A stretch of 64,000 bases of DNA from an uncultured Actinomycetota bacterium (GCA_963822305.1 CAWGHF010000026.1:11093-75092); one strand, 5' to 3'. Counted from the stretch's first letter, positions 8,792-47,542 are shown. The notes: generated by a model from the sequence alone, not told the origin. Numbers and translations are program-made.

Positions 8792-8877
8792 GGCAGGTTG
8801 CCCGAGCGGCCAATGGGAGCGGACTGTAAATCCGTCGGCTTACGCCTACGCAGGTTCGAATCCTGCACCTGCCACCA
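8792..8877 (+). tRNA. tyrT: tRNA-Tyr (GUA), intact, long variable arm, encoded CCA
   Basis: GGCAGGT/ACCTGCC acceptor stem, anticodon loop CTGTAAA, GGTTCGAATCC T-loop, 3' ACCA. Confidence 0.97.
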
Positions 8878-9135
8878 TGTGATGTCGCAGGACATCGGAA
8901 TAGCTCTGGACCCACGTTTTGTGGTCAGGGCTTTTCCTTTGGGCGGCCGCGGGGTTGGTAGTCCCTGGTCGGGTCGATGGTCAGTTCGCGGATCAGTTCG
9001 CCGGTGGCGGCGTCGATGATCCGGACGTCGAGGTGCTGAACGAGCATCAGAACGTGGGTTCGGGCGTGGGTTCGTCCGACGCCGATGTGGTGGAGTCGGA
9101 CGGCGAGGCGCAGGGCGAGGCTGGCCATTTCTTGG
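8878..9135 (-). mobile_element. IS481-family remnant (terminal end plus transposase C-terminus)
   Basis: Begins TGTGATGTC immediately after the tRNA CCA. Minus strand encodes [54 protein letters not shown]. Confidence 0.8.
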
Positions 9136-9163
9136 GTGCCGGGGGCGCGCGACCAGTCGACTG

Positions 9164-9301
9164 ATCGTGTGCCGTGACCCTCGGGAACGTCGGTCAGCCT
9201 TCCACGTTTACGGCACCAGATAGCCAAGAATCCTTGGACGCCGGAGGCTTCACCGGCTCACCCTTCGCGTCGATCCACAACAGCTCATCGCGGCCCTTGC
9301 C
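9164..9301 (-). pseudogene. Tyrosine integrase fragment
   Basis: Minus strand reads GKGRDELLWIDAKGEPVKPPASKDSWLSGAV..(frameshift)..TFPRVTAHD. This is the segment just before the H-x-x-R catalytic motif of mycobacterial site-specific integrases (recognised from memory). Confidence 0.65.
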
Positions 9302-9345
9302 TCGTGACCCGATTCCGGCTTCGGCCAGGCACGACCTCTGAGCAG

Positions 9346-9909
9346 TCAGGCGAGGCGTCGCTCCGCGCGGCGTTTGGTGTCGACGTGCAGTCGAGTGCGA
9401 ACGACTACGGCGTCGCCGAGCATGCCGGTCGCCGTCGTCGCAATGTCATCGGCGGCGTGAACCGCCGATGCCAGTGTCTCGGCGGAGAACGCGGTTGCTT
9501 TCAACTGGATACTCGGCGCACCGCGGTCGACGATCGCCGAGCCTTTCGCCGAGCGTATTGCCGGGTGGCTGCTCAGCTGGTCGGCGGCGGCGCTCGCCAG
9601 CGACTTGAGGTCAATGGTCAGCCTTCCCGTCCGGTCGCTTCCGGGCAGCGTCAGCGGCCCTGCGTGTTCGGCAGGTCCCCGGCTGAGCAGCCAGCGCATC
9701 CCCAACGGCACCAACACCACGCCGGCGGCAGCCGTGGCCCATGGCCACCAGTCCGACGCGACTGCGGTTGCCAGACCCGGAGCGGTCAACACGGTGGCAT
9801 TGTCGAAGTGGACAATGGCCCACGCGAGGAATCCGACGCCGATCGCGAGCAAGAGAAGACCCAAGACAAGGGCGCCGAGGCGGTCGACGCCAGTCACGAA
9901 GCGTCTCAT
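9346..9909 (-). CDS. AmaP-like alkaline-shock membrane anchor protein
   Basis: Two N-terminal TM helices plus a soluble domain; last gene of an Asp23 operon. Confidence 0.7.
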   Translation of the reverse strand: MRRFVTGVDRLGALVLGLLLLAIGVGFLAWAIVHFDNATVLTAPGLATAVASDWWPWATAAAGVVLVPLGMRWLLSRGPAEHAGPLTLPGSDRTGRLTIDLKSLASAAADQLSSHPAIRSAKGSAIVDRGAPSIQLKATAFSAETLASAVHAADDIATTATGMLGDAVVVRTRLHVDTKRRAERRLA

Positions 9910-10454
9910 CGGCGTCCTCCGGTGCTCACACGGACTTTGACTCTGGGGGGATCGGCGAGTGGCGCAAGCGCGTCGGTGACGGCGCCGCTCACCGCCGCAC
10001 GCTGCTCGGCGGGATCACGACCAGTGGTGCGGGCGCGGACGGTGATCTGGCGGCGCCGGGCGCTGGCGTTGGCGTCCACGACGCCCGGGACCGAGCGCGC
10101 CGCGACCGCGGCCAACCGCGCGGCGTCGGAGAGTTCGAGATAGACACTGGAGCGTGCGGACAACGCCACCGCGCGCTTACGGCGTGGCTTGAGCGCCAGC
10201 ACCACGCACATCAGGCCCAGCAGTGCGGTGATGATTCCCACCGGCACCATCCAGCCCTGGAAGGTCTGCCCGTCGAGCCAGTCGACCGCCATGCGGGTCC
10301 ACAGCCGACCGTCTATCCAGCCGGCCGCGACGATGCCGTCACGGATGCCGACCCCGCCGAGGGCGACCAGCGCTATCGCGCACAGCGCTCCGAGATAGGA
10401 CGCGCCCGCCGGTGCAACGGGGACGGGGGGCAGGAAGCGCCGCCGACCGGTCAT
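9906..10454 (-). CDS. DUF6286-like membrane protein
   Basis: Two TM segments then an Asp23-like fold; overlaps its neighbours. Confidence 0.65.
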   Translation of the reverse strand: MTGRRRFLPPVPVAPAGASYLGALCAIALVALGGVGIRDGIVAAGWIDGRLWTRMAVDWLDGQTFQGWMVPVGIITALLGLMCVVLALKPRRKRAVALSARSSVYLELSDAARLAAVAARSVPGVVDANASARRRQITVRARTTGRDPAEQRAAVSGAVTDALAPLADPPRVKVRVSTGGRR

Positions 10455-10484
10455 GATCGCCGTTTTGCCCGAGGTCGGTGGTGG

Positions 10485-10856
10485 TCATTGCAGGACCCGG
10501 GCGGGCGTGGTCTCGGTTTCCGAGACCACCTTCGACACAGTGACGTCAACGCCGTCGACCTTCAGTCCGGCCAACCGGTGCAGGGCCGCGGCGACGTTGT
10601 CCCGCACCGCCGCACCGACGTCTGTGAGCGGGCAGGGCCAGGGCACCGCGACGTCGACGGCCGCGCGTACTCTGTCCGCCGAGATCATCACGGTCACCTT
10701 GGGCAGCTCGCGTCCGATCAGTTTGGTCATCGTTGCGTCCTGCGGCTGCACGCCCGCGGTGTCCCGCGCGGCACGAACCGCGATACGCTGAGCAACTTTG
10801 TCTTTGACGACGAGAGATCCACGGTCGCCGGGATCAGCGTCTGGCGGCTCAGCCAC
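10485..10856 (-). CDS. Asp23/Gls24-family protein
   Basis: GSLVVKDKVAQRIA...VDVAVPWP...VRDNVAAALHRLAGLKVDGVDVTV. Confidence 0.8.
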   Translation of the reverse strand: MAEPPDADPGDRGSLVVKDKVAQRIAVRAARDTAGVQPQDATMTKLIGRELPKVTVMISADRVRAAVDVAVPWPCPLTDVGAAVRDNVAAALHRLAGLKVDGVDVTVSKVVSETETTPARVLQ

Positions 10857-11043
10857 GGTCGCGACCCCGCAGCAGCGTCATCACGTCGAATTCGCCGTCG
10901 CGCTGCCCGCCGATTATGTAGCCGATCACGCCGAGCACGAGCGCAATCAAGAAGCCGGTCAATCCGCCTGCGGCGGCGGCCAATCCGAGCAACAAGCCGG
11001 CGATCAGTCCAACTGTGCTAGTGGTCACGTTGTGTCCTTCCAA
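10849..11043 (-). CDS. Small membrane protein (DUF2273-like)
   Basis: 64 aa, Gly-rich hydrophobic hairpin, typical member of Asp23 operons. Confidence 0.7.
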   Translation of the reverse strand: MEGHNVTTSTVGLIAGLLLGLAAAAGGLTGFLIALVLGVIGYIIGGQRDGEFDVMTLLRGRDRG

Positions 11044-11070
11044 AAGAGTTGGTGGCCTCGTGGCGAAGTG

Positions 11071-11376
11071 TCACCGCGGCTGGTCGCGGATCACGTCTTC
11101 GACGGTGACGTCGATGACCCTGGCCTCGGGCAGCTGCGCGGCGATGGCGGAGCGCACCGCAGCGGCGGTGTCGTGCGCGGAGGCGCCGAACACCACGCAG
11201 ATGTGCACCTGTACCGCGCCGTCGTCGATGCGAATGCCGGGTACGCGCCGTCCGGGCAGGTACGTGCCGACTTCACCGAACATGCCCGGGTGCAGGTCGG
11301 CCACGCCGGGGACCGCCCGCACCGCCGCCGCCACGCGGTCGGCCGGCTCGTTCGGCGCCGGGGCGCTGGCCGTCAT
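11071..11376 (-). CDS. Asp23-like protein
   Basis: VAAAVRAVPGVADLHPG...VDVTVEDV pattern. Confidence 0.7.
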   Translation of the reverse strand: MTASAPAPNEPADRVAAAVRAVPGVADLHPGMFGEVGTYLPGRRVPGIRIDDGAVQVHICVVFGASAHDTAAAVRSAIAAQLPEARVIDVTVEDVIRDQPR

Positions 11377-11840
11377 TACTGCACTCGGGCGGGTGCGGCA
11401 GGTTGATCGTCGTCACGCTCGTCCTCGAGATGCACATCGTGGATGGTGATGTTAACCTCCGTGACTTCGAGTCCCGTCATGCGCTCGATAGCTGCGATCA
11501 CATTGCGGCGTATCCCGCTGGCGAGGTCAGTCATGGCCACCCCGTACTCGGCGATGATGTCGATGTCGACGGCGGTCTGCCGTTCGCCGACCTCCACCGA
11601 AACCCCTTGCCCCTGATTGACGCTGGCGCCCGGGATGCGTTCGCGCAGTTGCCCGACCATGCGGGCGGCTCCGCCTCCGCCGAGTTCGAAGACGCCGTTG
11701 ACTTCACGCGCGGCGATGCCCGCGATCTTGGAGACGACGGTGTCGGCGATCGTGGTCGTGCCTTGCGGACTGCTCAATGTGTTTTCGCTCGACGGCACCG
11801 CGCCTGCTGCGCCTGTGGTCTTCGGTTGCCCACTGGTCAT
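11376..11840 (-). CDS. Asp23/Gls24-family envelope stress protein
   Basis: GTTTIADTVVSKIAGIAARE...GVSVEVGE...IRRNVIAAIERMTGLEVTEVNITIHD. Confidence 0.9.
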   Translation of the reverse strand: MTSGQPKTTGAAGAVPSSENTLSSPQGTTTIADTVVSKIAGIAAREVNGVFELGGGGAARMVGQLRERIPGASVNQGQGVSVEVGERQTAVDIDIIAEYGVAMTDLASGIRRNVIAAIERMTGLEVTEVNITIHDVHLEDERDDDQPAAPARVQ

Positions 11841-12268
11841 TTCTATCCCCGCTCCCTTGCTTCGAGATGTGACGTCTGACAAGGCGCTCGCTGCCTGGCG
11901 GAACGAATGTCCCACACAATGTGACGTGCATCACAATCAATCGTAGTGCAGTTGCGGTACCGCAGACCAGAGGGCTGCTAGGCCGTCACAATCAAGGGAG
12001 GGTGGCCTCGTGGCTGAGCCGACTGGCGCCCCCCGACGCTACGACGCCGGTGTCCTGACGTGGCGGCGGCTGCGTCGATGGGCAACCGCAATGCCGTGTG
12101 TCGACGATGTGTATCGCCCGCCGAACTCGACAGCCCGCATCAGCAAGCTCTGCGATTCCTCGCCAGTTGGGCCGATGAAAACGGCGCTACCCCAGTGAGT
12201 TTCGACGACGCCACCAACGACAGTCGGAAGTCATAGATCGACAACAGGTTTCGCGGCTGCTCGAGTGC

Positions 12269-13021
12269 CTAACGCTCCGGCGATGCCCTCAGCCGGTCGA
12301 GCAGCTCAACAGCCACGTCACGCAATTTGATGTTGCGGTGCTGAGACTCGTCGACGAGTCGGGCGAATGCCTCCTCGGGCCCGCCGCCGTGTATTGCGAT
12401 CAGTGCCCCCTTGGCCATGTCGATCTCGGAGCGCGAGAGCAGTGCTGTCTCGAGCTGGGTGACAGTGTCTCGGGAGTGCTGCCAGCGGCCGGCGTTACTG
12501 ATCGCTTGACCCGCGGCGACGGTGTACAGGCGCATGAGTTGCGCGTCGAAGGGGTCGAATGCGGATGGGCTCTCGCTATAGATGTTGAGCGAACCGAGAA
12601 GTTCCTGCACCTCGCCCAACCCGCCGATGAGCAGCGGTACCGATAAACTCGCGCGAATCCCCAAGTGCTGAGCAGCCTTCACGAATTCCGGCCAGCGATG
12701 CTCGTCTTGGTCGATCACCGCGCGTATCGAGGTGCGCTGCGATGCGGCGTCGAGGCACGGCCCTCGGCCGCACGCATACTGCTCACAATCGAGGCGCAGT
12801 GCCCGCTCATCGGTGGACGCCGCGGTCTGGGTATCAGGCCAAGCAAGCATGGTGATGCTGACGGCGTCCGCATACGGGATCGCGGCGAGCGCCGTATAGG
12901 CGACCCGCGCCGCTATGTCGTCCAACGGTTCTTCAGCGGCGAACAGCTCTCGGAGTCCCTCGATCGCCTCGGCCGTAGACACCAATTTCGCCAACGGTGC
13001 CAGCAGGTAAGTACTCATCAT
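12269..13021 (-). CDS. GAF and ANTAR domain RNA-binding regulator
   Basis: GAF motif QYACGRGPCLDA...RWPEF...SLSVPL; C-terminal ANTAR SRSEIDMAKGALI...AFARLVDESQHRNIKLRDVA. Confidence 0.9.
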   Translation of the reverse strand: MMSTYLLAPLAKLVSTAEAIEGLRELFAAEEPLDDIAARVAYTALAAIPYADAVSITMLAWPDTQTAASTDERALRLDCEQYACGRGPCLDAASQRTSIRAVIDQDEHRWPEFVKAAQHLGIRASLSVPLLIGGLGEVQELLGSLNIYSESPSAFDPFDAQLMRLYTVAAGQAISNAGRWQHSRDTVTQLETALLSRSEIDMAKGALIAIHGGGPEEAFARLVDESQHRNIKLRDVAVELLDRLRASPER

Positions 13022-13181
13022 TTGCCTTCCGAGCATGCGATAACCGCTGCTACGGGCACACTGTGGCCTCAGCGTATCCCAATGACCATCCCGACGGTGG
13101 GCTTATTGACGTTCGCGAAGAACAACGGCGCAACTTCGAGCAAACCGGTCCGCCTTCGCCACAGGCTTAGGGCACGCTGAA

Positions 13182-14852
13182 GTGATGAACGACGCCGCGG
13201 GTCTCGTCGATGCGGTGGCTGCACTCGGCGCGGTGCTGGCGCGGACGACGTTCCCGCTGCCCGCGCCGTCGGCCTGGCCGGCCGAACGCGACCGCCGCGA
13301 GCTGTCCGCACAGCTGGCCGACTACCTCCTGCCACGGTTGCGCAGTATCGACGCGCCTCTGCTGGCGGTGGTGGGCGGCTCGACGGGCGCAGGAAAATCT
13401 ACGCTGGTCAACTCACTGGTCGGTGACGATGTCAGCCAGGCCGGCGTACTGCGGCCGACCACCCGAGGACCGGTCATCGTGTGCCATCCGTCGGATCTGG
13501 CGTGGTTCACCGACGACCGAATCCTGCCGCAACTTCCGCGATCGTCCGGGCCGGACGGCCTGGGTTTGGTGCCGCATCCGGGCGTCGGTCCCGGTCTCGC
13601 GCTGCTCGACGCCCCGGACATCGACAGCGTCGTGAGCACCAACCGTGAGCTCGCGTCGACCTTGCTGGCCGCAGCCGATCTCTGGGTCTTCCTGACCACC
13701 GCGGCCCGGTACGCCGACGCGGTGCCGTGGCAATTGCTCCACACCGCGCACAACCGGGGCACCGCCATCGCCATCGTGCTGAATCGCTGCCCGCCCGAGG
13801 CGGTGAACGACGTTGCCTCGCACCTGTCGGACATGCTGGCAGCGGGCGGGTTGGGTGGCGCGCCGCTGTTCGTGATCGCCGAGCAGGGACTCAAGTCGGG
13901 GCGGTTGCGGGACAAGGCGATCGCGCCCATCCGTTCGTGGCTGTCTGCACTGACAACTGACGCGGAGCAGCGGGCGGCGGTGGTTCGCTACACCCTCGAC
14001 GGCGCGCTGCGCAGCCTGCCGCCGCGGACCTACGCGCTGGCCGGCGCGGCCGACGACCAGCACGCGGTGCGCAAGCAGCTGGAGTCGTGCGTGTCTTCGG
14101 CCTACGGTGACGCGCTCGGGCGGGTGGATGAGGCGGTTCGCGACGGCGCGCTGTTGCGCGGCGAAGTGCTGGCCCGGTGGCAGGACGTGGTCGGTACGGG
14201 TGAATTGCTGCGCCGGTTGGAATCTCGGGTGGGGCGGATCAGGGACCGGGTCGTGGCAGCGGTGACCGGGCGGTCCACGCCGGTGGAGGAGCTGGGGGAG
14301 GCGTTGGAGGCGGGCATCGAGACTGTTGTTCGGAATGCCGTCGAGGAAGCGGCAGAGGTCTCCTACGGCTGTTGGGCGCGGCATCAGGCCGGCGCGCCCC
14401 TGTTGACGGACGAGCTGGCCCGGCCGGGCCCCGGGTTGGCCGACGCTGTCGAGCGGCTGGTCCGGGACTGGCAGGAGTTCGTGCTCGAGCTGGTCCGCAC
14501 GGAAGGCGCATCCAAGCGGTCGGGAGCCCGGCTGGCGTCGTACGGCGTCAACGGCGCCGGGCTCGTCGTCATGCTCGCGGTGTTCAGCCAGACCGCCGGG
14601 CTGACCGGCGCCGAGATCGCTGTGGCAGGCGGCACGACGGTCGCCAGCCAGAAAGTGCTCGAGGCGATCTTCGGCGAACAGGCGGTCCGCGGATTGGCTC
14701 GTCAGGCCAGGGCGGAGCTACTGGCACGCGTCGACGCGCTGCTGCAGCAGGACGCTGCTCGGTACGGCGACGTGCTGGGTTCGGCCTCGGCACTGGTGTC
14801 CGGTGAGGAATTGCGCGCGACCGCCGATCGCATCGCCAGGGTGCTGCGGTGA
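13182..14852 (+). CDS. Dynamin-like / YfjP-type GTPase (first of pair)
   Basis: G1 GGSTGAGKST, G2 RPTT, G3 DAPD, G4 LNR, then a long helical stalk with a hydrophobic paddle. Confidence 0.8.
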   Translation: MMNDAAGLVDAVAALGAVLARTTFPLPAPSAWPAERDRRELSAQLADYLLPRLRSIDAPLLAVVGGSTGAGKSTLVNSLVGDDVSQAGVLRPTTRGPVIVCHPSDLAWFTDDRILPQLPRSSGPDGLGLVPHPGVGPGLALLDAPDIDSVVSTNRELASTLLAAADLWVFLTTAARYADAVPWQLLHTAHNRGTAIAIVLNRCPPEAVNDVASHLSDMLAAGGLGGAPLFVIAEQGLKSGRLRDKAIAPIRSWLSALTTDAEQRAAVVRYTLDGALRSLPPRTYALAGAADDQHAVRKQLESCVSSAYGDALGRVDEAVRDGALLRGEVLARWQDVVGTGELLRRLESRVGRIRDRVVAAVTGRSTPVEELGEALEAGIETVVRNAVEEAAEVSYGCWARHQAGAPLLTDELARPGPGLADAVERLVRDWQEFVLELVRTEGASKRSGARLASYGVNGAGLVVMLAVFSQTAGLTGAEIAVAGGTTVASQKVLEAIFGEQAVRGLARQARAELLARVDALLQQDAARYGDVLGSASALVSGEELRATADRIARVLR

Positions 14853-16429
14853 CGCTCGTCGATCGGCTGGCAGCGCTGTCGTCCGTGGTGGAGCTGGGGA
14901 CCGGTCGGCTGCCCGAAGACGTGCTCGTCGAGCTGCGCGACCTCGATCGGCGGACCGGTGCCCGGCTGCGCTTGTCCGGTGAGTACACCGTCGTGGCACT
15001 GGCGGGCGCGACCGGCAGCGGCAAGTCCTCGTTGTTCAACACCGTCGCCGGGGCGCCGGTGGCCGGGGTCGGCGTCCGGCGGCCGACGACATCGGCCACG
15101 CAGGCAATGGTCTTCGGTCCCTCGAGCGCCACGGAACTGCTGGACTGGCTCGAGATTCAGGACCGGCAGTACGGCGACGCGTCAGCGCGTCCGGAGCTGT
15201 CCGGTCTGGTGCTGCTCGACCTTCCGGATCACGACTCGACGGAGTTGTCCCACCGGGCCGAAGTAGATCGGCTCGTCCGGCTCGTCGACGCCTTCACCTG
15301 GGTGCTGGACCCACAGAAGTACGCGGACGCCGCGCTACACGACGCGTACTTGCGGCCGCTGGCCGCGCACCGCGACGTGATGGTCGTGGTGCTCAACCAG
15401 TCCGACCGGCTGCCGCCCGCCGACCTCGCCGCGTGCGTGCGCGACCTCGAGCGGCTGCTCGCAGAGGACGGCCTGGCCGGTGTGCCCGTGCTGGCGACAT
15501 CAGCGGTGATACCGGACGGCGCAATCCCATTGCACGACTTTCTCGCTGCGACAGTGGCGAACCACAGGGCGCGGACAGCGCGGGTGAATGCGGATCTGGA
15601 TTCGGTGGCCGCGCGGCTTACGCCGCTGGTGCCGCCGGGGCGGTCAGAACCCCCGCTGCGGGACGCCGAGCGACAGCTTCGATCCGCACTCGCCGCGGCG
15701 GCAGGTGTCCCTGCCGTGGTGGGCGCGGTCGGCCGATCCTACGAGCGGAGGGGGCTCGCCGCAGTGGGCTGGCCACCGCTGCGCTGGGTGTCCAAGATTC
15801 GTCCAGACCCGTTGCACCGCTTGGGTTTAGGCCAATCCGATGCTGAGAGTGCTGTGCTTCGTCGCTCGTCGTTGCCCTCGGCTTCTGCGGCGTCGCGCGC
15901 GGGAGTGGACAGCGCGGTCCGCACGCTCGCGGCCACCGCGTCGACCGGTCTGCCGGCGCCTTGGCCTCGAATGCTGCTCGAAGCGGCGAAATCGCAAGCC
16001 GGGGCGGTGCCCGATGCGCTGGACCGGGCGATCGGCGGCGCCGACACAGTGGCTTATCGGCCACCACGCTGGTGGCGTCTGGTGGGGGCGATCCAGTGGG
16101 GTCTACTGGCTGCGGCTGTCGCGGGTGGGGTGTGGCTCGGGCTGGTTGCCGTGCTGGCATACCTGCAGATCGACGTCGATACGCCCACCCTCGGGCCGTT
16201 CGCCTGGCCGACCGTCTTGCTTGTGGGCGGACTCGCGCTGGGGCTTGCACTTCGGATACTCATCAGGCCCTTTGTGGCGGTGGGGGCGGCCCGGCGCAGG
16301 CGGAAGACGGCCGCCGAACTGAGCCGACGGGTCGAGACCGTGGGCCAGGAGTTCATCTTGTCGCCACTGCGGGCCGAGCTGGCTGTGTTCGAAGATCTGT
16401 CCGCGGCGGTCCGCCGACTCAGCGGTTGA
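14849..16429 (+). CDS. Dynamin-like / YfjP-type GTPase (second of pair) with C-terminal TM hairpin
   Basis: GATGSGKSS, RPTT, DLPDHD, PQKYAD, LNQ; two TM helices near the C-terminus; 4-bp overlap with the partner gene. Confidence 0.8.
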   Translation: MTLVDRLAALSSVVELGTGRLPEDVLVELRDLDRRTGARLRLSGEYTVVALAGATGSGKSSLFNTVAGAPVAGVGVRRPTTSATQAMVFGPSSATELLDWLEIQDRQYGDASARPELSGLVLLDLPDHDSTELSHRAEVDRLVRLVDAFTWVLDPQKYADAALHDAYLRPLAAHRDVMVVVLNQSDRLPPADLAACVRDLERLLAEDGLAGVPVLATSAVIPDGAIPLHDFLAATVANHRARTARVNADLDSVAARLTPLVPPGRSEPPLRDAERQLRSALAAAAGVPAVVGAVGRSYERRGLAAVGWPPLRWVSKIRPDPLHRLGLGQSDAESAVLRRSSLPSASAASRAGVDSAVRTLAATASTGLPAPWPRMLLEAAKSQAGAVPDALDRAIGGADTVAYRPPRWWRLVGAIQWGLLAAAVAGGVWLGLVAVLAYLQIDVDTPTLGPFAWPTVLLVGGLALGLALRILIRPFVAVGAARRRRKTAAELSRRVETVGQEFILSPLRAELAVFEDLSAAVRRLSG

Positions 16430-16492
16430 GCTCACGGTCAAGTCCATGGACGTGGTGTACGTCGTCGTCGTGTGATTCTTCGTTGTGGTGGT

Positions 16493-17360
16493 TCAGGCGG
16501 TCAGTGCCGCGGTGGTGACCTCCTGTTCTGTCGAGGTGTCTTCGGGGGTTCGTGATTTACTCAGGACATCGAGGCCGAGGTAGCGGCGGGATTCGGCCCA
16601 TTCGACGTGTTGTTCGGCCAGCACGGCGCCGACGAGGCGGATCAGGGCGCCCAGGTCGGGGAAGATGCCGACGACGTCGGTGCGGCGGCGGATCTCTTTG
16701 TTGAGCCGTTCTTGGGGGTTGTTCGACCAGATTTGTCGCCAGATTTGTTTGGGGAAGCTGGTGAACGCGAGCAGGTCCGGGCGGGCGTTCTCGAGGTGCT
16801 CGGCGACCTTGGGGAGCTTGTCGGCTAGCGCATCGATGATGCGGTCATATTGCGCAGCAACGGATTGCGCATCAGGTTGGTCAAACACCGAGTGCAGCAG
16901 CGTGCGTACCCACGGCCACGACGCCTTGGGAGTAATCGCCATCAGATTGGTCGTGTAATGCGTTCTGCAGCGCTGCCAGGCCGCGCCGGGCAAGGTGGCC
17001 CCGACCGCGGACACCAGCCCGGCGTGGGCGTCGGAGGTGACGAGTTTGACCCCGGTCAGGCCGCGGGCGGTCAGCGACCGCCAAAAGGTGAGCCAGCCGG
17101 CTCCGTCCTCGGCGGTGCTGACGTCGATGCCCAGGATCTCGCGGTAGCCCTCGGCGTTGACCCCGACCGCGATCAGCGCGTGCACGTTGACCACCCGGCC
17201 CTGCTCGCGGACCTTGAGCACCAGGGCGTCGGCAGCGACGAAGGTGTAGGGGCCGGCGTCCAGCGGCCGGGTGCGGAACGCCTCGACGGCGGTGTCGAGT
17301 TCCTTGGCCATCACCGACATCTGTGACTTCGACAACGACGTGATGCCCAGGGTTTCGACT
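16493..17360 (-). pseudogene. IS256 transposase, C-terminal part
   Basis: VETLGITSLSKSQMS...FVAADAL...VTSDAHAGL...WQRCRTH...SNNPQERLNKEIRRR. Confidence 0.9.
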
Positions 17361-17429
17361 GATATGTAGGTGATTTTGTCAAGTGGCAGGGTGAAGCGGC
17401 GGCCGCGACCGTCGTCGTGGCCGCCGCTT

Positions 17430-17660
17430 CCTTTGACCAGATGAGTTCCGCTGTTCGGGTCGAGCGTGTCGTGTCGACGCGTGTCAGTCTGAAATGCGCG
17501 GATTGGTTACCGCAGGACGGACCTTCGAATCGGAGTTAACCAGCGGGTCTAGCGTCGAGCGTCGTCAGTTGTGTCACAACGTGATTGCTCATAGTCGAAT
17601 CGCGGATCACTCCAGGACGCTTGTCGCCCCGTCAGCGGGTGTTCATCTGGACAATTCTGG
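17430..17660 (-). ncRNA. Putative bridge/seek RNA of IS110-A
   Basis: Segments match both target flanks and both donor-end halves, each pair flanking a small hairpin (see findings). Confidence 0.65.
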
Positions 17661-17666
17661 GTGTGG

Positions 17667-37583: not shown

Positions 37584-37831
37584 TATAGACGCGCCGAGAT
37601 CCGATGCATACTCGTAACCGTCTGCGGCCGTTGGGATCATCGGGCAGCAATACATTGGGCACGCGGCGACGTACGGCCGACGATGTCTTCGTAGGCCACC
37701 GATCACACCGTTGAGGGCTCCAGTGCGGTCTCAGCGGCCAGGCGTGCGAGGTTTGCGTGCAGCGGCCGGCGTCAGAACTTCTCGACAGTGATCGCTTGGT
37801 CGCGTTCTGCGGGGCCCGTTGTTTGCACGAA

Positions 37832-38893: not shown

Positions 38894-39606
38894 GGGTGCG
38901 CTCCGGCTACAGCCAGGTCCCTGGCCCGGTAGCGGCCGGCCGCCGGCCTGGTGTCGAGCAGTCGCAGGAACGCCGGCACGACGGACTCGGGGTCTGCACG
39001 GTCGGAAATGTCCTCGCCTGGGAACGCGGCCTGATGCATTTCGGTGCGCATGTCGCCTGGATCGAAGGCGTAGATCCGGACGGCGTTGTTCTCAACTGCA
39101 AGAATCGCGGAGAGTTGATCGAAGGCGGCCTTCGACGAGCCGTATCCGCCCCAGCCTTCGTACGCCTCAATCGCGGCGTCCGACGTGAGGTTCACGATCA
39201 CACCGTGGGTCTGGAGCAACGCTGGGAGCGCTAGCTGGGTCAAGGCAAGTGGCGCGAAGACGTTCACGTCGTACACGGCTCGCAAGTCAGCCAGCGAGTA
39301 GTCGGCAAGCGTCGGTTGCGGGCTTGGGCCGAGTCGGCTGGCGTTGTTGACCAGCAGGCCGAGCGGCCCGACCGTAGTAGCGGCGTCGACCAGCGCGGCG
39401 CGGTGGCGTTCGTCGGTGACGTCGCCTGCGACGGCGATCAGCCGCGGTGAATTAAACGTGGCAGCCGCGGCGGCCAATTCCGCGGTGCGGCGACCGTCCA
39501 CGACGACGGTCCAGCCGCGTTCAAGGAGTGCGGTTGTCAGCGCACGGCCAAACCCGCGCGAGGCGCCCGTAACAATTGCGACATTAGTGGTCTCGGATCG
39601 GCTCAT
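38890..39606 (-). CDS. Short-chain dehydrogenase/reductase
   Basis: TGASRGFG, LVNNAS, YGSSK. Confidence 0.9.
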   Translation of the reverse strand: MSRSETTNVAIVTGASRGFGRALTTALLERGWTVVVDGRRTAELAAAAATFNSPRLIAVAGDVTDERHRAALVDAATTVGPLGLLVNNASRLGPSPQPTLADYSLADLRAVYDVNVFAPLALTQLALPALLQTHGVIVNLTSDAAIEAYEGWGGYGSSKAAFDQLSAILAVENNAVRIYAFDPGDMRTEMHQAAFPGEDISDRADPESVVPAFLRLLDTRPAAGRYRARDLAVAGAHP

Positions 39607-39616
39607 ACAGGCATAC

Positions 39617-39642
39617 TGACAGTTAAAGTCAACTTTAAGTCA
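39617..39642 (-). promoter_or_regulatory. SoxR box inside a MerR-type promoter
   Basis: Palindrome TTAAAGT-CA-ACTTTAA (39623-39638). Minus strand has TTGACT, a 19-bp spacer and CAGTAT, driving SDR-queA-like. Confidence 0.75.
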
Positions 39643-39668
39643 AGAGCTCATTGAGCGAGGTGCGACAT

Positions 39669-40142
39669 ATGGACAGGGCAGACCTGCTTGCGGTCAGCGA
39701 AGTGGCGAATCGGAGCGGCTTCGCACCATCGGCGATCCGGTTCTATGAGAAGGAGGGCCTGATCGAGGCCTCGCGAACGGCCGGTGGACAGCGGCGATTC
39801 GAGCGAAACATGTTGCGGCGCCTTGCGTTCATCCGCGCTGCGCGTAACGTCGGGTTGACACTCGACGAGATCGCCGCCGCGCTCGCGATGCTTCCCGGCA
39901 GCCGCACCCCGACCCGCGCAGACTGGACCCGGCTGTCAAAGGATTGGCGTGCGCGCCTGGACGATCAGATCGCGGGGCTCATCGCGCTTCGCGACAGTTT
40001 GGATTCCTGCATCGGCTGCGGCTGCCTGTCGCTGAAGCGCTGCGCGATCTCCAACCCCGCGGATACCGCCGCGGTCGCCGGACCCGGCGCAGTCTATTTG
40101 CCGAAGTCCCTGCGACGAGGAGCGATTAGCCGACGGCGCTGA
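39669..40142 (+). CDS. soxR: Redox-sensitive [2Fe-2S] activator SoxR
   Basis: MerR HTH, RTAGGQRRF, CIGCGCLSLKRC cluster motif. Confidence 0.93.
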   Translation: MDRADLLAVSEVANRSGFAPSAIRFYEKEGLIEASRTAGGQRRFERNMLRRLAFIRAARNVGLTLDEIAAALAMLPGSRTPTRADWTRLSKDWRARLDDQIAGLIALRDSLDSCIGCGCLSLKRCAISNPADTAAVAGPGAVYLPKSLRRGAISRRR

Positions 40143-40199
40143 GTGGCTGCCGCCGACAAGAGAGGATCGTCATCGACCGGTCTACTGCCGCCGCATGTG

Positions 40200-40755
40200 G
40201 TGCGGAGTATGAGTGGCGGAGTGCATGTAGTGACGTTCGCGACCCAGGCCGGTACTGTCGCCGGCGATCAATGACCCCTACACCGCGATCCAAGTGGTGC
40301 ACCACGTTTCCGCGATCCAGTCGGTATTGGCGTCGCGGGCGCTGACGGACGATGTTCGGCGCAACAGTTCGGGTCAGGTCCTGGTGTGGCTTCCGTATCC
40401 GGGATTTGAGACCTACCTTCACGTGGGTTGTGCCCAGATCCGGCGCTACGGATCCCATGAACCGATGGTGCTTGCCGCGATCCTTCAGATGCTTAGCGCG
40501 GTGGCCCAGGACTGCGTGGGCGAATCACGCCGCGCGGCCGTGAAAGCGCAGATCGACCTGGTGGTCCGCGCCGCGGAGCGCGAGCTGGCAGAGGAGTCCG
40601 ACCGGGCGATGGTGGCCCGTGCCGCCGCTGCGGCGGCCGGAGTGGTTCAGCGGCCCGGGACACTCGCGCCGCCGGCCTCCGCCTTCGGAATGGCGGCCGC
40701 CGCTGCTGCGGCGGCCTCGTCGTGCGAGGACAAGGACCGCGAGACTACGCGATAA
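40200..40755 (+). pseudogene. DUF2254 membrane protein, C-terminal fragment
   Basis: SPAINDPYTAIQVVHH...QIRRYG..EP.V motif; N-terminal half absent. Confidence 0.65.
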
Positions 40756-41056
40756 AGTGAGCCGCAGGCGCGGTGATCGCGTCCCAATCCTGCGCTGCGA
40801 CGAGATTAGTTGGCGTCAGCCAGGATCTGCCCACACAGGCCACGTTCGGCAGCGCGAGGTAGTCGGCGCTGGTGGCGCGGTCGATTCCGCCGGTGGGGCA
40901 GAAGATGGTCTCGGGCAGCGGACCCGCCAGTGCCCGAAGCGCCTGCCGACCGCCTGTGGACGCGATGGTGCCCGCACCGACGGCCATGTCCGGCACCTGC
41001 TCAGCCACCGACCGGATCGCGTCGAGTGCCTCGCAGGTACGCACCGTTATCTCCAT
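40745..41056 (-). pseudogene. KDPG/KHG aldolase (Eda) remnant with internal deletion
   Basis: EITVRT..ALDAI...VGAGTI joined directly to LRALAGP...FCPTGGI...NVACVG.SW. Confidence 0.7.
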
Positions 41057-41111
41057 GGTGTCGAGCTGCGTAAATGCTGTTGGCTAAACGAGCCGCATCG
41101 CCCGCACGCCC

Positions 41112-41477
41112 TCAGGCAGTAAGCAATACCCAAACCGCGGCCGCGGATAGCAGTACTGCTGTGCAGTAACAGCACAGAGCGATCACACGGTCGAACCGGC
41201 CCAGTTGCAGCCCGTGCTCGATCGTGAACCGGATGCGGTGCGCAAAGTGGAACAGAGCGAGCACACATACGCCGAGCAGCACAAGTTTGGACAGCGGATT
41301 CCGTACGACTGTCAGTAGGTGCGCATGGTCCGGTGCGTCGAGCAACCCGAGCGGAAACGCCACTCCGAACAGGAACAGCAGGACGGGCAGAACGAGTGCG
41401 ACCGCCATGCCCCCGGCGCTGAACAGCAGCCACAGGAACGGCTCGGCTGACCTTCGACGCGGCGCGGATGTGCTCAT
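41112..41477 (-). CDS. frdD: Fumarate reductase membrane anchor D
   Basis: EPFLWLLFSAGG...LFHFAHRI...H. Confidence 0.88.
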   Translation of the reverse strand: MSTSAPRRRSAEPFLWLLFSAGGMAVALVLPVLLFLFGVAFPLGLLDAPDHAHLLTVVRNPLSKLVLLGVCVLALFHFAHRIRFTIEHGLQLGRFDRVIALCCYCTAVLLSAAAVWVLLTA

Positions 41478-41866
41478 GACATGACTACCCACGCAACGAC
41501 CGCCGAGACGACGAACCATGCCGCGTAGTGCCCCGCCAGAACCGCGCGAGCAGGGACGCGGCGTCCCCGAATGTGGGGCACGATCGCACGCGGTGCCAAA
41601 TTGAACCAGGTAATTGCGTGCAGCAGAAGGAAGATCAATGCGACGACGTTCAGCGAAATCACGAGTGGATTGGCACTCCAGTCCAGGAATCGAACGTATG
41701 AATCGGGTCCGGCGCTAATCGCATGCACCAGCAGCAACAGATACACGACAAACCAGGCCACGAATACGCAACTGATTTCGCGAAGCATGAACAGCAGGTA
41801 AGACCGCCGCTTCGCCCACCAATACCTGTCCACGGGCTGACGATAAGCGCGAACTGGCGTCGTCAT
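41474..41866 (-). CDS. frdC: Fumarate reductase membrane anchor C
   Basis: YRQPV...WW...YLLFMLRE...LHAITWF. Confidence 0.88.
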
Positions 41867-42606
41867 CGCGCGCTCCTTGGGAACAGCAATCTCTTCACCG
41901 AATCCGTTGCCGCGGTTAGTTTGTACCGCTGTATCGCGCCTGCCGGATCGACTCCCTTCGGACAAGCCGTCGAGCATTCACCCACCAGGGTGCACGCCCA
42001 CGCGCCGTTGGCCGCGGCGAGTACGTCGCTCCGATCCGCCGCGCCTTCGTCGCGCGAGTCCAGGTTGTAACGCTGCCCTAGAGCGATCGCCGCCGGGCCG
42101 AGGAAGTCCGGGTCAAGCGCGTACACCGGGCATGCCGAGTAGCACAGCATGCAGTTGATGCACATGCTGAACTTCTTGTATTCGTCGAGTTCGGCTGGGG
42201 TTTGCAAGTATTCGCCATCCTCAATGGACAACTCGTCGTCACGGATGATCCAGGGCTTGACGCTCGGCAGTTTGGCCATGAAGTCGCTGATGTCGACGAC
42301 GAGATCGCGTATCACCGGGAAGTTTCGCATCGGCTCGACTCGTACCGGCCCGGGCAGGTAATCCGCGAGGAACGTCGCGCACCCCAATTTCGGGTCGCCG
42401 TTGATAGTCATCCCGCAGCTGCCGCATATGCCCATCCGGCACGACCATCGGAAGGTCAGTGTTCCGTCGAGGTGATCCTTGATGTAGTTCAGACCGTCCA
42501 GGATCGCCCATTCGCGGGTGAGGGGAACTTCGTAGGCCTGCAAGGCCGGCTCGGATTCGATCTCAGGTCGATACCTTGAGACCTCCATGACGATTCGGTC
42601 CGCCAT
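41863..42606 (-). CDS. frdB: Fumarate reductase iron-sulfur subunit
   Basis: [34 protein letters not shown]. Confidence 0.93.
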
Positions 42607-42608
42607 CG

Positions 42609-44348
42609 CTACCTCCCATACACGCGTTCACCCGGAGGCCAGCGCGTGATCGTGACCGGGAGGTGGTCGACTCGCGCTGTGCCGTCGGATTCTCGATGAA
42701 CCAATGTGTGCGCCAAGAAATGCTCGTCGTCGCGGTTGGGAAAGTCGGTTCGCTGATGTGCGCCACGGGATTCTTCTCGGTGCAACGCGGATTCGATGAT
42801 CATCTGTGCGACGTCGAGCATCCCCGACAACTCGAGCAGCGCCGTCAGCTCCGTATTGAACGTATGGCTGTGATCGTCGATGCCGGCCTTCGCGAATCGT
42901 TCCTGCAGCAACCGGATCTGGTCGACCGCTTTGGTAAGTGTGGGTCCATCACGGTAGATACCAGCGGCGGTCTCCAACGTGGCCTGCATATCCGTCCGAA
43001 TATCAGCGATTCGTTCGCCGCCCTCGGCATGGCGAGTGAGCTCGTGTTCCAGCCGGCGTTCCTCGGTGCGTGCCTGAGCCTGCACCGCGAGCGAGGCGCT
43101 GCGGACCGTCGTCGCGTACTCCGCTGCGGCGCTGCCCGCGCGGGCTCCGAACACCAGCAGCTCCGGCAGCGAGTTCGACCCCAAGCGGTTGGCGCCATTG
43201 ATGCTGACGCATGCAGCCTCGCCTGCGGCATATAGACCGGGAAGCGTTGTGGCACCGTGGATATCCGTGTGAACGCCACCCATCATGTAGTGCACCACCG
43301 GTCGCACGGGGACCAGCTCGGTAACGGGATCGATGTGCTGGTAGTTGCAGCACAGCTCACGCACGAACGGCAGCTTTGTGTCGATCAGGTCGGCGCCAAG
43401 GTGTCGCAGGTCGAGGTAGACGACTGGTCCGTACAGGGTATCAACGGTCCTTCCCTTTTCCTGCTCGTGCACGAACGCTTGGGACACCCGGTCCCGGGGT
43501 CCGAGCTCCATGCTGCGCAGCTTTGGCTCGGGCGTGGGCTTGCCGAGGTCGTAGTCCTGCAGGTAGCGGTAGCCGTCTTTATTCAGCAACCAGCCACCTT
43601 CCGCTCGCGCGGCCTCGGTGATCAAGATTCCGGTGAACGGCAGTCCGGTGGGGTGGTACTGGACGAACTCCATGTCTTTCAGCGGCGCGCCCGCCCTGAA
43701 AGCGAGGGCCATTCCGTCCCCGGTCTTGATGTTCCCGTTGGTGGTGAATGGAAACACGCGCCCACATCCGCCGGTGCATACGATCACGGCGTCGGCAAGG
43801 ATTGTCTCGATGCGCCCCGTCGCCACCTCGATGGCGACAACACCGCGGACCCTGCCGTCGTCGACGAGCAGGGTCGTCACGAACCACTCGTCGTAACGCA
43901 CGACGTCCGGATATGCGAGAACGCGCTGAAACAGTGTGTGCAGCAGGTGAAATCCGGTCTTGTCGGCGGCAAACCACGTGCGTAGCTTCTGCATTCCGCC
44001 GAATGCTCGAACGGCAATGTGCCCGTCCGGCTTACGGCTCCACGGACAGCCCCAATGCTCGAGCTGCAATAACTCCCGTGGTGCCTCGGCCACGAAGGCC
44101 TCGACCGCGTCTTGGTCGCACAGCCAATCGCTGCCGGAAACGGTGTCGGACGCGTGTTGGTCCAGGCTGTCATCCTCGCCCGCTACGGCCGCGGCGCCGC
44201 CCTCTGCTGAGACGGTGTGGCTGCGCATCGGGTAGACCTTGGACACAATCGCGACGCTCAGACGCGGGTCCGTTTCGGCAATCGCGATCGCGGCGCGCAG
44301 ACCCGCACCGCCACCGCCAATCACCACGATGTCGTGCGTCGCGGTCAT
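42609..44348 (-). CDS. frdA: Fumarate reductase flavoprotein
   Basis: [15 protein letters not shown] (covalent FAD His), [21 protein letters not shown]. Confidence 0.95.
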
Positions 44349-44354
44349 CTGGAC

Positions 44355-44588
44355 TCACGCCTCGTGATCGCCGCTGTGCTCGTCCTTCAACACTTTGCCG
44401 TCGTGTCGAACCGTTCGTATGCGAATGGATCCGTCGTGGTAAACATGGCGGGTCTCGCGGCAGCCGCATGAGAACCTGACGTCGTCGTAGTCGAGGCCGT
44501 CATCGTCACCCTCGACATGGTGATCGCCATCTTTCATGTGCCCGCAGGGCGCCTTTTGCTTAGTGAAGTGCGTCGTGGTCGCTACCAT
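44355..44588 (-). CDS. Small Cys/His-rich hypothetical protein upstream of frdA
   Basis: CGH...CGCRETRHVYHDG...DEHSGDHEA; 77 aa, stop 7 bp before the frdA start. Confidence 0.65.
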   Translation of the reverse strand: MVATTTHFTKQKAPCGHMKDGDHHVEGDDDGLDYDDVRFSCGCRETRHVYHDGSIRIRTVRHDGKVLKDEHSGDHEA

Positions 44589-44857
44589 CGTCCGGCCTCC
44601 GCGGCTGTCAGGCGGGTGATCCAGATCACATTCAGAATATGCCTGGACAAGACCGCGCGTCCACCGTTCACCGGCGCCGAGACACCGTTGACAGGTGTCC
44701 CGGGACGCCGTTCTAAATGGGGGTCTGTTTTCGGGGAGTTTTCCGCATTTGACAGGACATCCCGACGTCGGCTCGCGATCTGGCAAAAGGCGGCTCCCGG
44801 TACCCGCAAATGGGGTTACTGTCGAGTAACAGCTCCGCCCACGTTGGGAGGTCCGCC

Positions 44858-46755
44858 ATGGCCGTCAGCGAACAAGTCAGCGAGCAACAGGCCAGGCAGG
44901 TCGCCGAACAGGCGCGAGAGACGCAGTGGCGCCAGCCGAGTTTCGGCAAGGAATTGTTCCTCGGCCGTTTGCGGTTGGACCTCGTTCATCCGCACCCCAG
45001 CGGGTCGGCGGAGGCTGCGAAGCGTGGCGAGGCGTTCCTGGACAAGCTGCGCGATTTCTGCGAGTCGCAGATCGATGCCGCTGTGATCGAACGCGACGCG
45101 CAGATTCCCGACAAGGTCGTCCGCGGCTTGAAGGAACTCGGCGCGTTCGGCATGAAGATTGCCACCGAGTACGGCGGGGTCGGGCTGTCACAGGTGTACT
45201 ACAACAAGGCGCTCGCACTCGTCGGCTCGGTGCATCCGTCATTGGGCGCGTTGCTTTCCGCGCACCAATCGATCGGCGTACCGCAGCCGATCACATATGT
45301 TCGGCACCGAGGAACAGAAGCGAACATGGCTGCCCCGGTGTACCCAGGAGATCAGCGCCTTCCTGCTCACCGAGCCGGACGTGGGCAGCGATCCAGCCCG
45401 GCTGCACGCCACCGCCACACCCTGATGGCGATGACTATGTGCTGAACGGTGTCAAGCTGTGGACCACCAACGGCGTGATCGCCGACCTGCTGGTGGTGAT
45501 GGCCCAGGTACCCAAGAGCGAGGGGCACCGGGGTGGGATCTCCGCATTCGTGGTGGAAGCGGACGCACCGGGCATCGTGGTGGAGAACCGCAACGCGTTC
45601 ATGGGGTTGCGCGGCATCGAAAACGGGCTCACCCGGTTGACCAACGTGCGGGTACCGGCCGCGAACCGGATCGGCCGGGAAGGCGACGGGCTGCGGATCG
45701 CACTGTCCACGCTGAACGTGGGGCGGTTGTCGCTGCCGGCGGTGTGTACCGGAGTCGATGAAATGGTGTTTGAAGATCGCCAGGGAGTGGTCTCGAGAGC
45801 GGGTGCAATGGGGCCGGCCGCTCGGCGAGCACGAAGCGGTGGCTGGAAAGGTCGCGTTCATCGCGGCCACCACCTACGGGCTGGAGGCGATGCTCGAGCT
45901 TGCCAGTGAGTTGGCCGACGCCGGCCAAACCGACATACGGATCGAGGCAGCGCTGGCCAAGCTCTACGGCTCGGAGATGGCCTGGCTGGTCGCCGACGAA
46001 CTGGTACAGATTCGCGGCGGACGCGGCTTTGAGACCGCCGAGTCGCTTGGCCGCCCGCGGCGAGCGAGGGGTGCCCGCCGAGCAGGTGCTGCGCGACTTG
46101 CGCATCAACCGGATCTTCGAAGGCTCCACCGAGATCATGCATCTGATGATCGCCCGCGAGGCGGTAGACGCGCATCTGTCGGTGGCCGGCGACATCATCG
46201 ACCCGCAGGCCGACACCCGGCGCAAGGTGAAGGCGGCCGCGAAGGCCGGCAAGTTCTATGCCCGCTGGCTGCCGACCTTGGTAACCGGCAAGGGCCAGCT
46301 TCCCACGTCGTTCACCGAGTTCGGACCGCTGGCGGGGCATCTGCGCTATGTCGAACGGGCCAGCCGCCGGCTTGGCGCGAAGCACCTTCTACGGGATGTC
46401 GCGGTGGCAGGGCAGGCTCGAGCACAAGCAGCGGTTCCTGGCGAGGATCGTGGATATCGGCGCGGAGCTGTTCGCGATGACCGCCGCCTGCGTCCGGGCA
46501 CAGCGTGACCGGGCGGACCATACCGCCGTCGAGCTCGCCGACGCGTTCTGCCGTCAGGCGCGGGTTCGGGCCGAGCAGCGGTTCGACCAGCTTTGGCATA
46601 ACTGCGACGACTCCGACGTCACGCTGGCTCGGGGCGTGTTGAGCGATCGCTACACCTGGCTCGAAGAGGGGATCCTCGACCCGTCGATCGAGGGGCCGTG
46701 GATCGCTCAGGAGGGCGGCGTCGACAAATCCGATGTGCACCGTTCCATACGCTGA
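44858..46755 (+). CDS. Long acyl-CoA dehydrogenase (FadE10-like); about 5 frameshifts
   Basis: [50 protein letters not shown] in successive frames. Confidence 0.82.
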
Positions 46756-46844
46756 TCTGTCGCTGAGAGGTGGGCACTCGGAAGGATCCGACATGACGGC
46801 AGCAGGCCCCGCCCGGATCGCGCGTCACGACGACACATCGCCCC

Positions 46845-46987
46845 CTTGGTGCTACTACGGGCGATGGCTGGGCGTGCTGGAGGATGTGCTGGCCGGCTGG
46901 GGCGCCGTTTGCGGGGACCACGACGTCACTGCTCGGGCCAGGGCACTGGCGCAGCGGCCGGCCGGTCACGATCACGCGCAGCGATGA
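46845..46987 (+). pseudogene. Nitrile hydratase accessory-protein-like C-terminal fragment
   Basis: WCYYGRWLGVLEDVLA...ARARALAQRPAGHDH resembles the NHase beta-like accessory tail (from memory). Confidence 0.45.
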
Positions 46988-47304
46988 CTGCGCCAGTGCG
47001 GCCCATCCTGGTGACCGGTGCGACCGGTCGGATGGGTGGCACCGGCCGCCATGTCGCCGCCGAACTCGTGAAACGCGGTCTGCCTGTCAGAGCGCTGGTC
47101 CGCCGGATCGATGAGCGATCAGAAGCGTTGCAGGCCATGGGAATCCATGTGGTCGTCGGTGACTTCGCCGACTATGGCAGCCTGCTGGCCGCGCTGGAGA
47201 GCGTTGAGGCCGCGTACTTCAGCTATCCTGTCGATGCCGGACTTACGGAAGCCGCGGGGCTTTTCGCGGCCGCAGGGCGCGAGCGGGACCTACAGCTTGT
47301 GGTG
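46984..47304 (+). pseudogene. NmrA-family protein truncated at the att arm
   Basis: ILVTGATGRMGGTG...AYFSYP, cut where repeat C begins. Confidence 0.75.
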
Positions 47305-47305
47305 G

Positions 47306-47541
47306 GTCCCAGCAGCCAGGGATTTATGCTGGTCTCTCGCAAACCTCCGCAAGTCAACCGATAGTCAGTGCAAGTTCGTTCGCCGCCCCTGAGAGACGTT
47401 GCGCCGCAACGAGAATCTGGGTCAGCCCAAGCTCGCTACCAGCCTCGACGCCAGTTAGCTGACCTTCGCCGCAAACGCCGGGGATGGACTGTAAATCCGT
47501 CGGCTAACGCCTACACAGGTTCGAATCCTGTACCTGCCACC
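47306..47541 (+). repeat. att site C: conserved arm plus tRNA-Tyr 3' half (47486-47541)
   Basis: Homologous to sites A and B; tRNA allele matches site A. Confidence 0.9.
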
Positions 47542-47542
47542 C

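Follow-up and report, generated by a model that had tools for sequence, protein, structure and literature searches.

How did three blocks of DNA carrying completely different genes come to stand one behind the other downstream of a single tRNA-Tyr gene, each of them closed by a further copy of the 3' part of that tRNA? The question is raised by a stretch of 64,000 nucleotides, here called the window, from an uncultured Actinomycetota bacterium (GCA_963822305.1, CAWGHF010000026.1:11093-75092; contig C26 of the assembly). In our judgement the locus was probably built by serial site-specific integration, or accretion, of three elements of the family of phage Che9c at the tRNA-Tyr gene of a soil Mycobacterium, the xis-int module being either lacking from these elements or lost.

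Displaced tRNA-Tyr 3' parts and their arms

The only tRNA gene of the window is a tRNA-Tyr(GTA) on the + strand (ARAGORN; Rfam RF00005, 54.6 bits). The 13-mer GGACTGTAAATCC, which covers its anticodon stem and loop, occurs exactly on the + strand at 8821, 21435, 32756 and 47486, against a chance expectation of 0.02. From each of the three later positions a copy of the tRNA 3' part, here called the core, extends for 56-57 bases through the variable arm, the T arm and the 3' acceptor strand to ...CCTGCCAC, and on the 5' side of each of these cores lies a non-coding arm of about 190-240 bp, homologous between the copies. The core-to-core distances are 12614, 11321 and 14730 bases, and the DNA between successive cores is referred to as islands 1, 2 and 3. 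Exact matches and alignments therefore bear out what had been proposed from the sequence-only reading of the window, namely that a tRNA-Tyr 3' half recurs three times behind homologous arms. The features are as follows.

8197-8688, - strand: yajQ/DUF520, chromosomal neighbour and left anchor of the hot spot (Pfam PF04461, E 4.6e-62)
8792-8877, + strand: intact tRNA-Tyr(GTA), attL-type site, with its core part at 8821-8877
21216-21434, + strand: arm A, P-arm-like and non-coding, right end of island 1 (repeat families D1-D3, alignments)
21435-21503, + strand: core A, an A-T T-stem variant, with a 12-base partial second core, TGCACCTGCCAC
32020-32755, + strand: non-coding right end of island 2, including arm B (32511-32755)
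32756-32812, + strand: core B, 56/56 identical to the tRNA
32813-32890, + strand: P'-like left end of island 3, CAGGTCAGACGTGGTATATAACCACGC..., with GTCCCAGC at 32870
47306-47485, + strand: arm C, right end of island 3
47486-47542, + strand: core C, the same A-T T-stem variant as core A

The cores fall into two types. Core B matches the tRNA at every position, whereas cores A and C, identical to each other, differ from it at three (53/56 identical), a compensatory T-stem pair and one variable-loop base setting them apart from core B and the tRNA. The first T-stem pair therefore reads G-C (tRNA), A-T (A), G-C (B) and A-T (C) along the window, and across the whole arm family it is G-C, A-T or C-G, compensated in every case. 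In addition, the 12 bases directly 3' of core A (21492-21503) repeat the 3' end of a G-C-type core and are probably what a deletion between two att copies has left of one more core.

The nature of the repeat emerged from comparison with phages. With arm B plus its core as the blastn query against phage records, the match was limited to the last 60 bases, from GGACTGTAAATCC to CCACCCAG, which share 100% identity with the attP region of Che9c, Dori, Sbash, ThulaThula, Sejanus, Mask, dwieneke and others and begin at the same base as the island repeats. In these phages the attP region consists of a non-coding stretch of about 190 bp, the core, and then an int gene on the opposite strand that ends about 35 bp after the core. 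Che9c has been predicted to use a 60-bp attB in tRNA-Tyr (Pham et al. 2007, PMC2884959, Table 3). From the shared core and the phage layout we conclude that the repeat belongs, as the common core, to a class of tyrosine-integrase att sites already known, and that the arm occupies the position of the P arm.

The likeness to the attP-int cassettes of Che9c, Dori, Sbash and ThulaThula extends to the 60-bp core and its start nucleotide, to a non-coding P arm that takes up about 190 bp on the 5' side of the core and, in two related arm-bearing metagenome contigs (L043 and L047), to an int gene of the same integrase family lying directly 3' of the arm-core on the other strand, with 63% and about 55% identity, respectively. 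In contrast, the P arm of the islands belongs to another sequence family, with at most a short GTTGYG.C-type motif in common, and the units in the window carry metabolic and regulatory cargo, have neither phage genes nor int, and are stacked three deep.

Within the arm, TCCCAGC is directly repeated; it is found once in P', about 60 bases into the island 3 side and in relatives, so that its copies cluster at the sites. The centre of the arm is a palindrome, GTTGYGNCRCAAC, in which a motif resembling the GTTGTGCC/GTTGTGAC repeats in the arms of Che9c and Dori occurs twice, in inverted orientation. Judged from such short motifs, the conserved blocks TCCCAGC and GTTGYGNCRCAAC may be protein-binding sites. 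Flanks homologous to the P'-like end of island 3 also lie 3' of the cores in L030 and G113 and of the G015 tRNA. The arm was also considered as a coding sequence and rejected, every frame being broken by indels between the copies. Rfam searches of the arm regions returned only a borderline tRNA match at site B (29.1 bits for a cut-off of 29, E 0.057), and RNAalifold, run on only four arm-plus-core sequences, gave three double-change pairs in the arm (columns 71/204, 100/112 and 154/158) and one double-change T-stem pair (267/283) in the tRNA-derived part of its consensus fold. On so thin a sample, the reading of the arm as a structured RNA, or as a tRNA carrying an insert, was set aside and not refuted.

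Separate origins of the three units

A maximum-likelihood tree of 27 arms placed arm B with L045 and G123 (support 99/97) and arm C with the arms that are associated with integrases (94/89), leaving arm A alone on a long branch. This contradicts a different account, in which segmental duplication or unequal crossing-over multiplied the tRNA 3' region in place, with unrelated DNA entering between the copies later. Such an account would be in keeping with direct repeats in one orientation at one locus, and with a 240-base repeat, made of the core and a fragment of an IS481-family insertion sequence (IS; 84-93% identical), that brackets the whole 38.7 kb. Yet the arms are only 70-83% identical to one another where the cores are 95-100% identical, as selection on a core that has to rebuild a working tRNA predicts; decay of duplicates formed in situ does not fit. 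Moreover, the closest relatives of arms B and C lie in other genomes (99% and 93% identity for arm B, 91-92% for arm C with the L043 and L047 arms), and the compensatory pair and variable-loop base that separate cores A and C from core B and the tRNA indicate different functional tRNA sources. We therefore hold duplication in place to be very improbable.

The same comparisons address the accuracy of the assembly. The genome resembles a metagenome-assembled genome (MAG), with 32 contigs, 90% completeness and 4% contamination, and the relatives are MAGs as well; gpdA and an acyl-CoA dehydrogenase gene are spread over several frames, possibly through sequencing error; and contig C26 duplicates 17 kb of another contig, C32, at only 83% identity, so that two genomes may have been binned together. 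These points would suit an array that is an artefact of assembly or binning. However, the repeats are either short (57 bases) or diverged, and are unlikely to collapse or to form chimaeras. The metagenome contig L045 matches, along its whole length of 1199 bases and at 99.0% identity, window positions 31904-33100, which take in island 2, arm B, core B and island 3, and therefore junction B, at least, was assembled independently; the right end of island 2 with arm B is found again in L048 (97.1% identical to 31467-32667). Comparable arrays are present in G015, G031, G032, G057 and other genomes. An artefact is accordingly the least probable of the explanations considered here, and one to which we attach almost no weight. 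In conclusion, the differing arm clades, the compensatory core variants and the independently assembled junction B exclude in-situ duplication and misassembly.

The relatives differ from the window unit by unit, as the sequence-only reading had anticipated, and no sampled relative carries the whole 40 kb as one fixed block, the arrangement that it had named as fatal to its proposal. Specifically, contig C32 repeats, in syntenic order and at about 83% identity, the 17 kb that lie upstream of the tRNA, and has its own tRNA-Tyr, an IS481 relic and a single 5.2-kb island ending in an arm-core; only the last 2 kb of this island match island 3 (92% identity, window 44720-46776), and the acyl-CoA dehydrogenase gene within them is intact in C32 (646 aa). 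In G123 (L023/L035) a single 20-kb island follows the tRNA-Tyr; its last 0.8 kb are 95% identical to the end of island 2 and the rest is different. G015 differs from the window in its units too. Altogether, the identity of the core with the Che9c type, the xis-int genes beside the L043 and L047 arms and the arm clades sustain the proposal that the repeats are att sites of a tyrosine integrase crossing over at the anticodon stem-loop, reached in separate integrations.

In the window the tRNA follows genes for a geranylgeranyl reductase, a polyprenyl synthase, htpX, gpdA and yajQ; the yajQ-tRNA-Tyr order is kept in seven other genomes of the genus, and the DNA downstream of the tRNA is not. Among 120 genomes of the genus, two to five tandem tRNA-Tyr 3' parts are common (for example in G015, G031, G032 and G057), and the arm is present in four further genomes. 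In G015 (C6:671189-739329; L016, L017) a stretch of 68 kb contains five tRNA-Tyr cores, of which a single one has an arm of the window type; two of the others share another left flank, AACACCGAGA..GGCGGACTG. Since these cores have different left flanks, several element families stack at one site.

As a side observation, the core genes grcC1, htpX, gpdA, yajQ and tRNA-Tyr occur twice in the assembly as a 17-kb segment, at 3-19.8 kb of C26 and at 136-152 kb of C32. Where other small contigs of the assembly are duplicated, the copies agree at 93-99%, compared with the 83% of C26 versus C32, and C26 may stem from another, co-binned Mycobacterium or represent a large segment of foreign origin. Co-binning would bear on which genome owns the array and on where a helper integrase is to be sought, not on the array itself.

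A stack without its integrase

The events that we propose follow the usual scheme of tRNA-directed integration. An element whose attP consists of a P arm, a 57-60-bp core equal to the 3' part of tRNA-Tyr, and P' would recombine with the tRNA gene, the catalyst being a Che9c-family tyrosine integrase with its crossover at the anticodon stem-loop. Integration would rebuild the tRNA from the 3' part that the element brings and push the old 3' part downstream, behind the P arm, as attR. Repeated rounds would give the order tRNA, island 1, arm A-core A, island 2, arm B-core B, island 3, arm C-core C. Under the standard model the farthest copy would be the original chromosomal 3' part, and each nearer copy would have been brought by the previous arrival. 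In intact relatives the xis-int genes lie directly 3' of the core, at the attL end; they are absent from all three units of the window and would have been lost or never present. In this genome the islands would then be fixed blocks of cargo, able to move only with Int and Xis supplied in trans. The enzyme, the order of events and the loss of int as against its primary absence are points that we infer.

The absence of the integrase was assessed in several ways. A six-frame search with PF00589 at E<=1 marked 13 places in the assembly, none of them on C26 or C32. In addition, tblastn with the Che9c integrase, the L043 integrase, an integrase fragment from L029, Xis and HigBA gave no match on either contig, and six-frame reading together with tblastn using the L029 fragment revealed no integrase remnant to the left of arms A, B or C. 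The only integrase-like relic that was found is the C-terminus of an IS481-family DDE transposase, present twice.

8878-9128, - strand: IS481-family 3'-end relic, copy 1, with the transposase C-terminus at 8925-9128 (tblastn, annotated IS481-family transposase, E 4e-5)
47543-47735, - strand: IS481-family relic, copy 2, with the transposase C-terminus at about 47552-47735, 84-93% identical to 8878-9058 (repeat families D4, D5)

Hence one part of an earlier claim holds, that the islands have no intact integrase; the other part, that a relic of about 140 bp derives from one, does not, the fragment being of an IS481-family transposase. As the C-terminus of a Che9c-type integrase the relic was rejected: it has no match to the Che9c integrase, and its only annotated match is to an IS481-family transposase. 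Its end, TGTGATGTC..GACATC, is hairpin-like and abuts the tRNA, and a third copy, 73-75% identical, lies 3' of the tRNA-Tyr on C32. The same end abuts tRNA-Tyr 3' ends in G028, G015 and G127. It is also found away from tRNA-Tyr, so we discarded the idea that it is part of the att site and treat it as a separate mobile sequence. The relic would then be an insertion sequence prone to land beside tRNA-Tyr and not the recombinase of the islands.

A wider distribution of this end was noted in passing. In at least five genomes an IS481-family end, TGTGATGTCTCGGGACATC, to which an inverted copy is often added, borders directly on a tRNA-Tyr 3' end, whether of the gene or of a displaced copy (window 8878-9128 and 47543-47735; L001 7597-7850; L011; L016 19100-19250; L039 5754-5788). 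The IS481-family end is also found elsewhere, in G123 C27, in G015 C6 at 708.9 kb and at about 44678-44753 of the window. This distribution suggests an IS481-family element with a preferred insertion site beside tRNA-Tyr.

The arm family extends well beyond the window. A pattern drawn from the best-conserved block of the arm is present in 10 genome contigs, mostly of soil Mycobacterium/Actinomycetota MAGs, and in 12 JGI metagenome contigs, with none in IMG/VR. Phages were accordingly rejected as carriers of the arm, only the core matching them, and so were plasmids, whose matches are ordinary tRNA-Tyr genes. In the compact modules of the soil metagenome contigs L043 (448-2626) and L047 (394-2279), a helix-turn-helix (HTH) excisionase-like open reading frame lies upstream of int, with a divergent higB; higA is present in L043, and L047 ends within higB. 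One of the two int genes has an in-frame stop and the other is frameshifted. Such a module is possibly a minimal autonomous member, or a helper, of the arm family. In G092 an L043-type integrase (80-85% identity) lies directly after an intact tRNA-Tyr, with P' repeats TTGTCAC..TTGTCACAAC. Within the assembly of the window, the sole Che9c-like integrase (C3:120580-121909; L052 8581-9910) is frameshifted, has 41-54% identity and stands directly after tRNA-Leu(taa); it is a sister system with another tRNA specificity. A separate oddity is L027 (1995-2575), in which two arms stand in tandem without a core between them; the contig is filed under a MAG of cyanobacterial lineage and is probably mis-binned mycobacterial DNA.

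Only metabolic and regulatory genes lie near the three arms of the window and near those of C32, G015, G109, G113, G089, G121, G122, G123, G126, G127 and G129. This leads to an account which shares its origin story with serial integration by Che9c-family elements and differs from it only in present activity. The units would be integrase-less cargo islands bounded by att sites, comparable to satellites or to cis-mobilizable elements (CIMEs), and would be mobilised in trans, their conserved P and P' ends being recognised by the Int and Xis of a Che9c-type phage or of a small xis-int-higBA element. The array would then serve as an exchangeable store of genes at tRNA-Tyr, much as the sequence-only reading had supposed. 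We regard this as unlikely, yet far from negligible. Nearly all complete units (the three of C26 and those of C32, G015, G121 and G123) run from a P' stub to a full arm with metabolic or regulatory cargo only, their homology boundaries are sharp, and they contain no integrase. Arms of full length with their conserved blocks persist in distant genomes, island 3 retains both a P'-like end and an arm, units with common ends have wholly different cargo, and the helper integrase family is present in the same habitat. On the other hand, the P' sites of the relatives that bear int, a pair of TTGTCAC motifs seen in L043, L047 and L009, sit inside the 3' end of int and are missing from islands 1-3. In one close pair, B and G123, conservation of the arm (93.5%) does not exceed that of the non-coding DNA next to it (95% across all 794 bases), and the arms or cores of L022, L029 and L036 are truncated, as decay predicts. 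It is with an equally modest probability that we entertain an undescribed family of integrase-less cargo islands in soil mycobacteria, defined by the arm and P' stub, which would parasitise the Int and Xis of such phages or small elements to hop between tRNA-Tyr sites; in that case the array would be a living, exchangeable gene store and not a graveyard of dead elements.

Several observations sit uneasily with accretion of Che9c-family elements, the account that we prefer. The island arms do not align as a whole with phage P arms, and the motif that they share is short and could be due to chance. No trace of integrase, xis or higBA was detected in the three units or in C32, and among about 25 arms examined an integrase is nearby only in L043, in L047, in L044 (a C-terminal remnant 1.8 kb from the core) and in L029, where the opposite side of the arm holds a piece, 108 residues long, of a different tyrosine recombinase. 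The arm-core-int arrangement of L043 and L047 could be the junction of two stacked elements and not one attP, and the related integrase of G092 has no detectable arm of the family beside it. Finally, the IS481 relic stands after both the tRNA and core C, which the simple model does not predict; it needs either two independent IS insertions or an incoming unit that had the relic as its P' side.

Island cargo and the meaning of the array

Genes were called from the third-position GC pattern and named with Pfam. No cargo is common to the three islands, which upholds the description of the 12.6-, 11.3- and 14.7-kb islands as completely unrelated in content, and families of phage structural, lysis or immunity proteins were not found in islands 1-3 by Pfam. 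The cargo is as follows.

9346-16429, mixed strands: island 1 cargo (Pfam)
9346-11915, - strand: Asp23/DUF6286 cluster, island 1
12269-13036, - strand: GAF-ANTAR regulator, island 1
13182-16429, + strand: two dynamin-like GTPases, island 1
16436-20990, - strand: IS256 (Mutator-family) transposase gene split by nested IS110-family insertions, right end of island 1
21682-31648, mixed strands: island 2 cargo (Pfam)
33016-47364, mixed strands: island 3 cargo (Pfam)

The split IS256 gene was recognised by PF00872 in a C-terminal part (16493-17335) and an N-terminal part (20423-20917), and the IS110-family insertions by PF01548/PF02371 (17667-18764 and 19419-19733). Island 2 encodes a TetR regulator, an acyl-CoA synthetase, a YaaH-type transporter, an acyl-CoA dehydrogenase, a second AMP-binding enzyme, an aldehyde dehydrogenase and a Zn-alcohol dehydrogenase. 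Island 3 encodes an anthrone-oxygenase-like protein, NmrA/NAD-binding proteins, MarR, DoxX, QueA, SDR and MerR proteins, frdABCD, an acyl-CoA dehydrogenase in several frames (44810-46755) and an NmrA fragment. Its fumarate reductase operon frdABCD is complete (41112-44348, - strand) and is not part of the shorter island version on C32.

Island genes and genes downstream of them, at 12290-16429, 21691-22424, 26756-28680 and 61372-64000, have counterparts, 80-86% identical, on contigs C29, C30, C23 and C24, and since these are scattered over the assembly the cargo looks like ordinary mycobacterial chromosomal genes of a related species. The genes for gpdA (6178-7206), the island 3 acyl-CoA dehydrogenase and KAS III (57668-59618) each lie in at least two frames; they could be true pseudogenes or indel errors of a low-coverage contig. 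The polyhydroxyalkanoate (PHA) region after site C had been suggested to be a fourth unit, a suggestion that finds no support, the remaining 39 kb of contig beyond that site containing neither another arm nor another core.

Stacks of this kind have counterparts elsewhere. [quoted passage not shown] The units of the window have a CIME-like structure, with cores at both ends, only cargo and IS genes inside (Pfam) and no PF00589. They differ in host phylum and integrase family, and the array has no autonomous partner. The ssrA-specific islands of Dehalococcoides are likewise reported to lie in tandem, with unrelated cargo, behind one small-RNA gene and to be bounded by direct repeats of its 3' end; their target is tmRNA and their repeats are shorter. 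With an integron the window shares only an array, at one site, of units with unrelated content. It has neither a resident integrase (C26) nor a cassette promoter, its units are multi-gene segments of 11-15 kb with genes on both strands and their own regulators, and its sites appear to be tRNA-derived double-strand att sites, not folded attC. The cassette-like gene-capture platform proposed from the sequence-only reading is, in view of the missing resident integrase and of the size and make-up of the units, at most a conjecture. In the tycheposons of Prochlorococcus, successive tRNA integrations push older elements inward and leave partial tRNAs, cargo and degenerate elements (bioRxiv 10.1101/2020.12.28.424599). 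Tycheposons have their own integrase and usually a replication module, whereas the units of the window lack both and have a conserved 200-bp arm at their right ends.

Stacking at one tRNA with displaced partial tRNAs is thus already known, as are the core and the integrase family; what is new is the arm family, its occurrence across soil mycobacterial MAGs, and units that are consistently without integrase. The locus provides a base-level record of how a tRNA hot spot grows by stacking in environmental mycobacteria, in which separate donors are marked by the compensatory variants retained in the displaced tRNA 3' parts. If the units cannot be mobilised, the array is a tidy but ordinary case of island accretion and decay. 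If they can be mobilised in trans, mycobacteria would have in them their own version of CIMEs or satellites, and a route by which metabolic modules of 10-20 kb pass between species. In addition, the comparison connects a set of anonymous island ends from soil MAGs with the Che9c family of phage integrases, which is already known and which offers, in its attP-int cassette, a candidate integration-vector system for mycobacteria.

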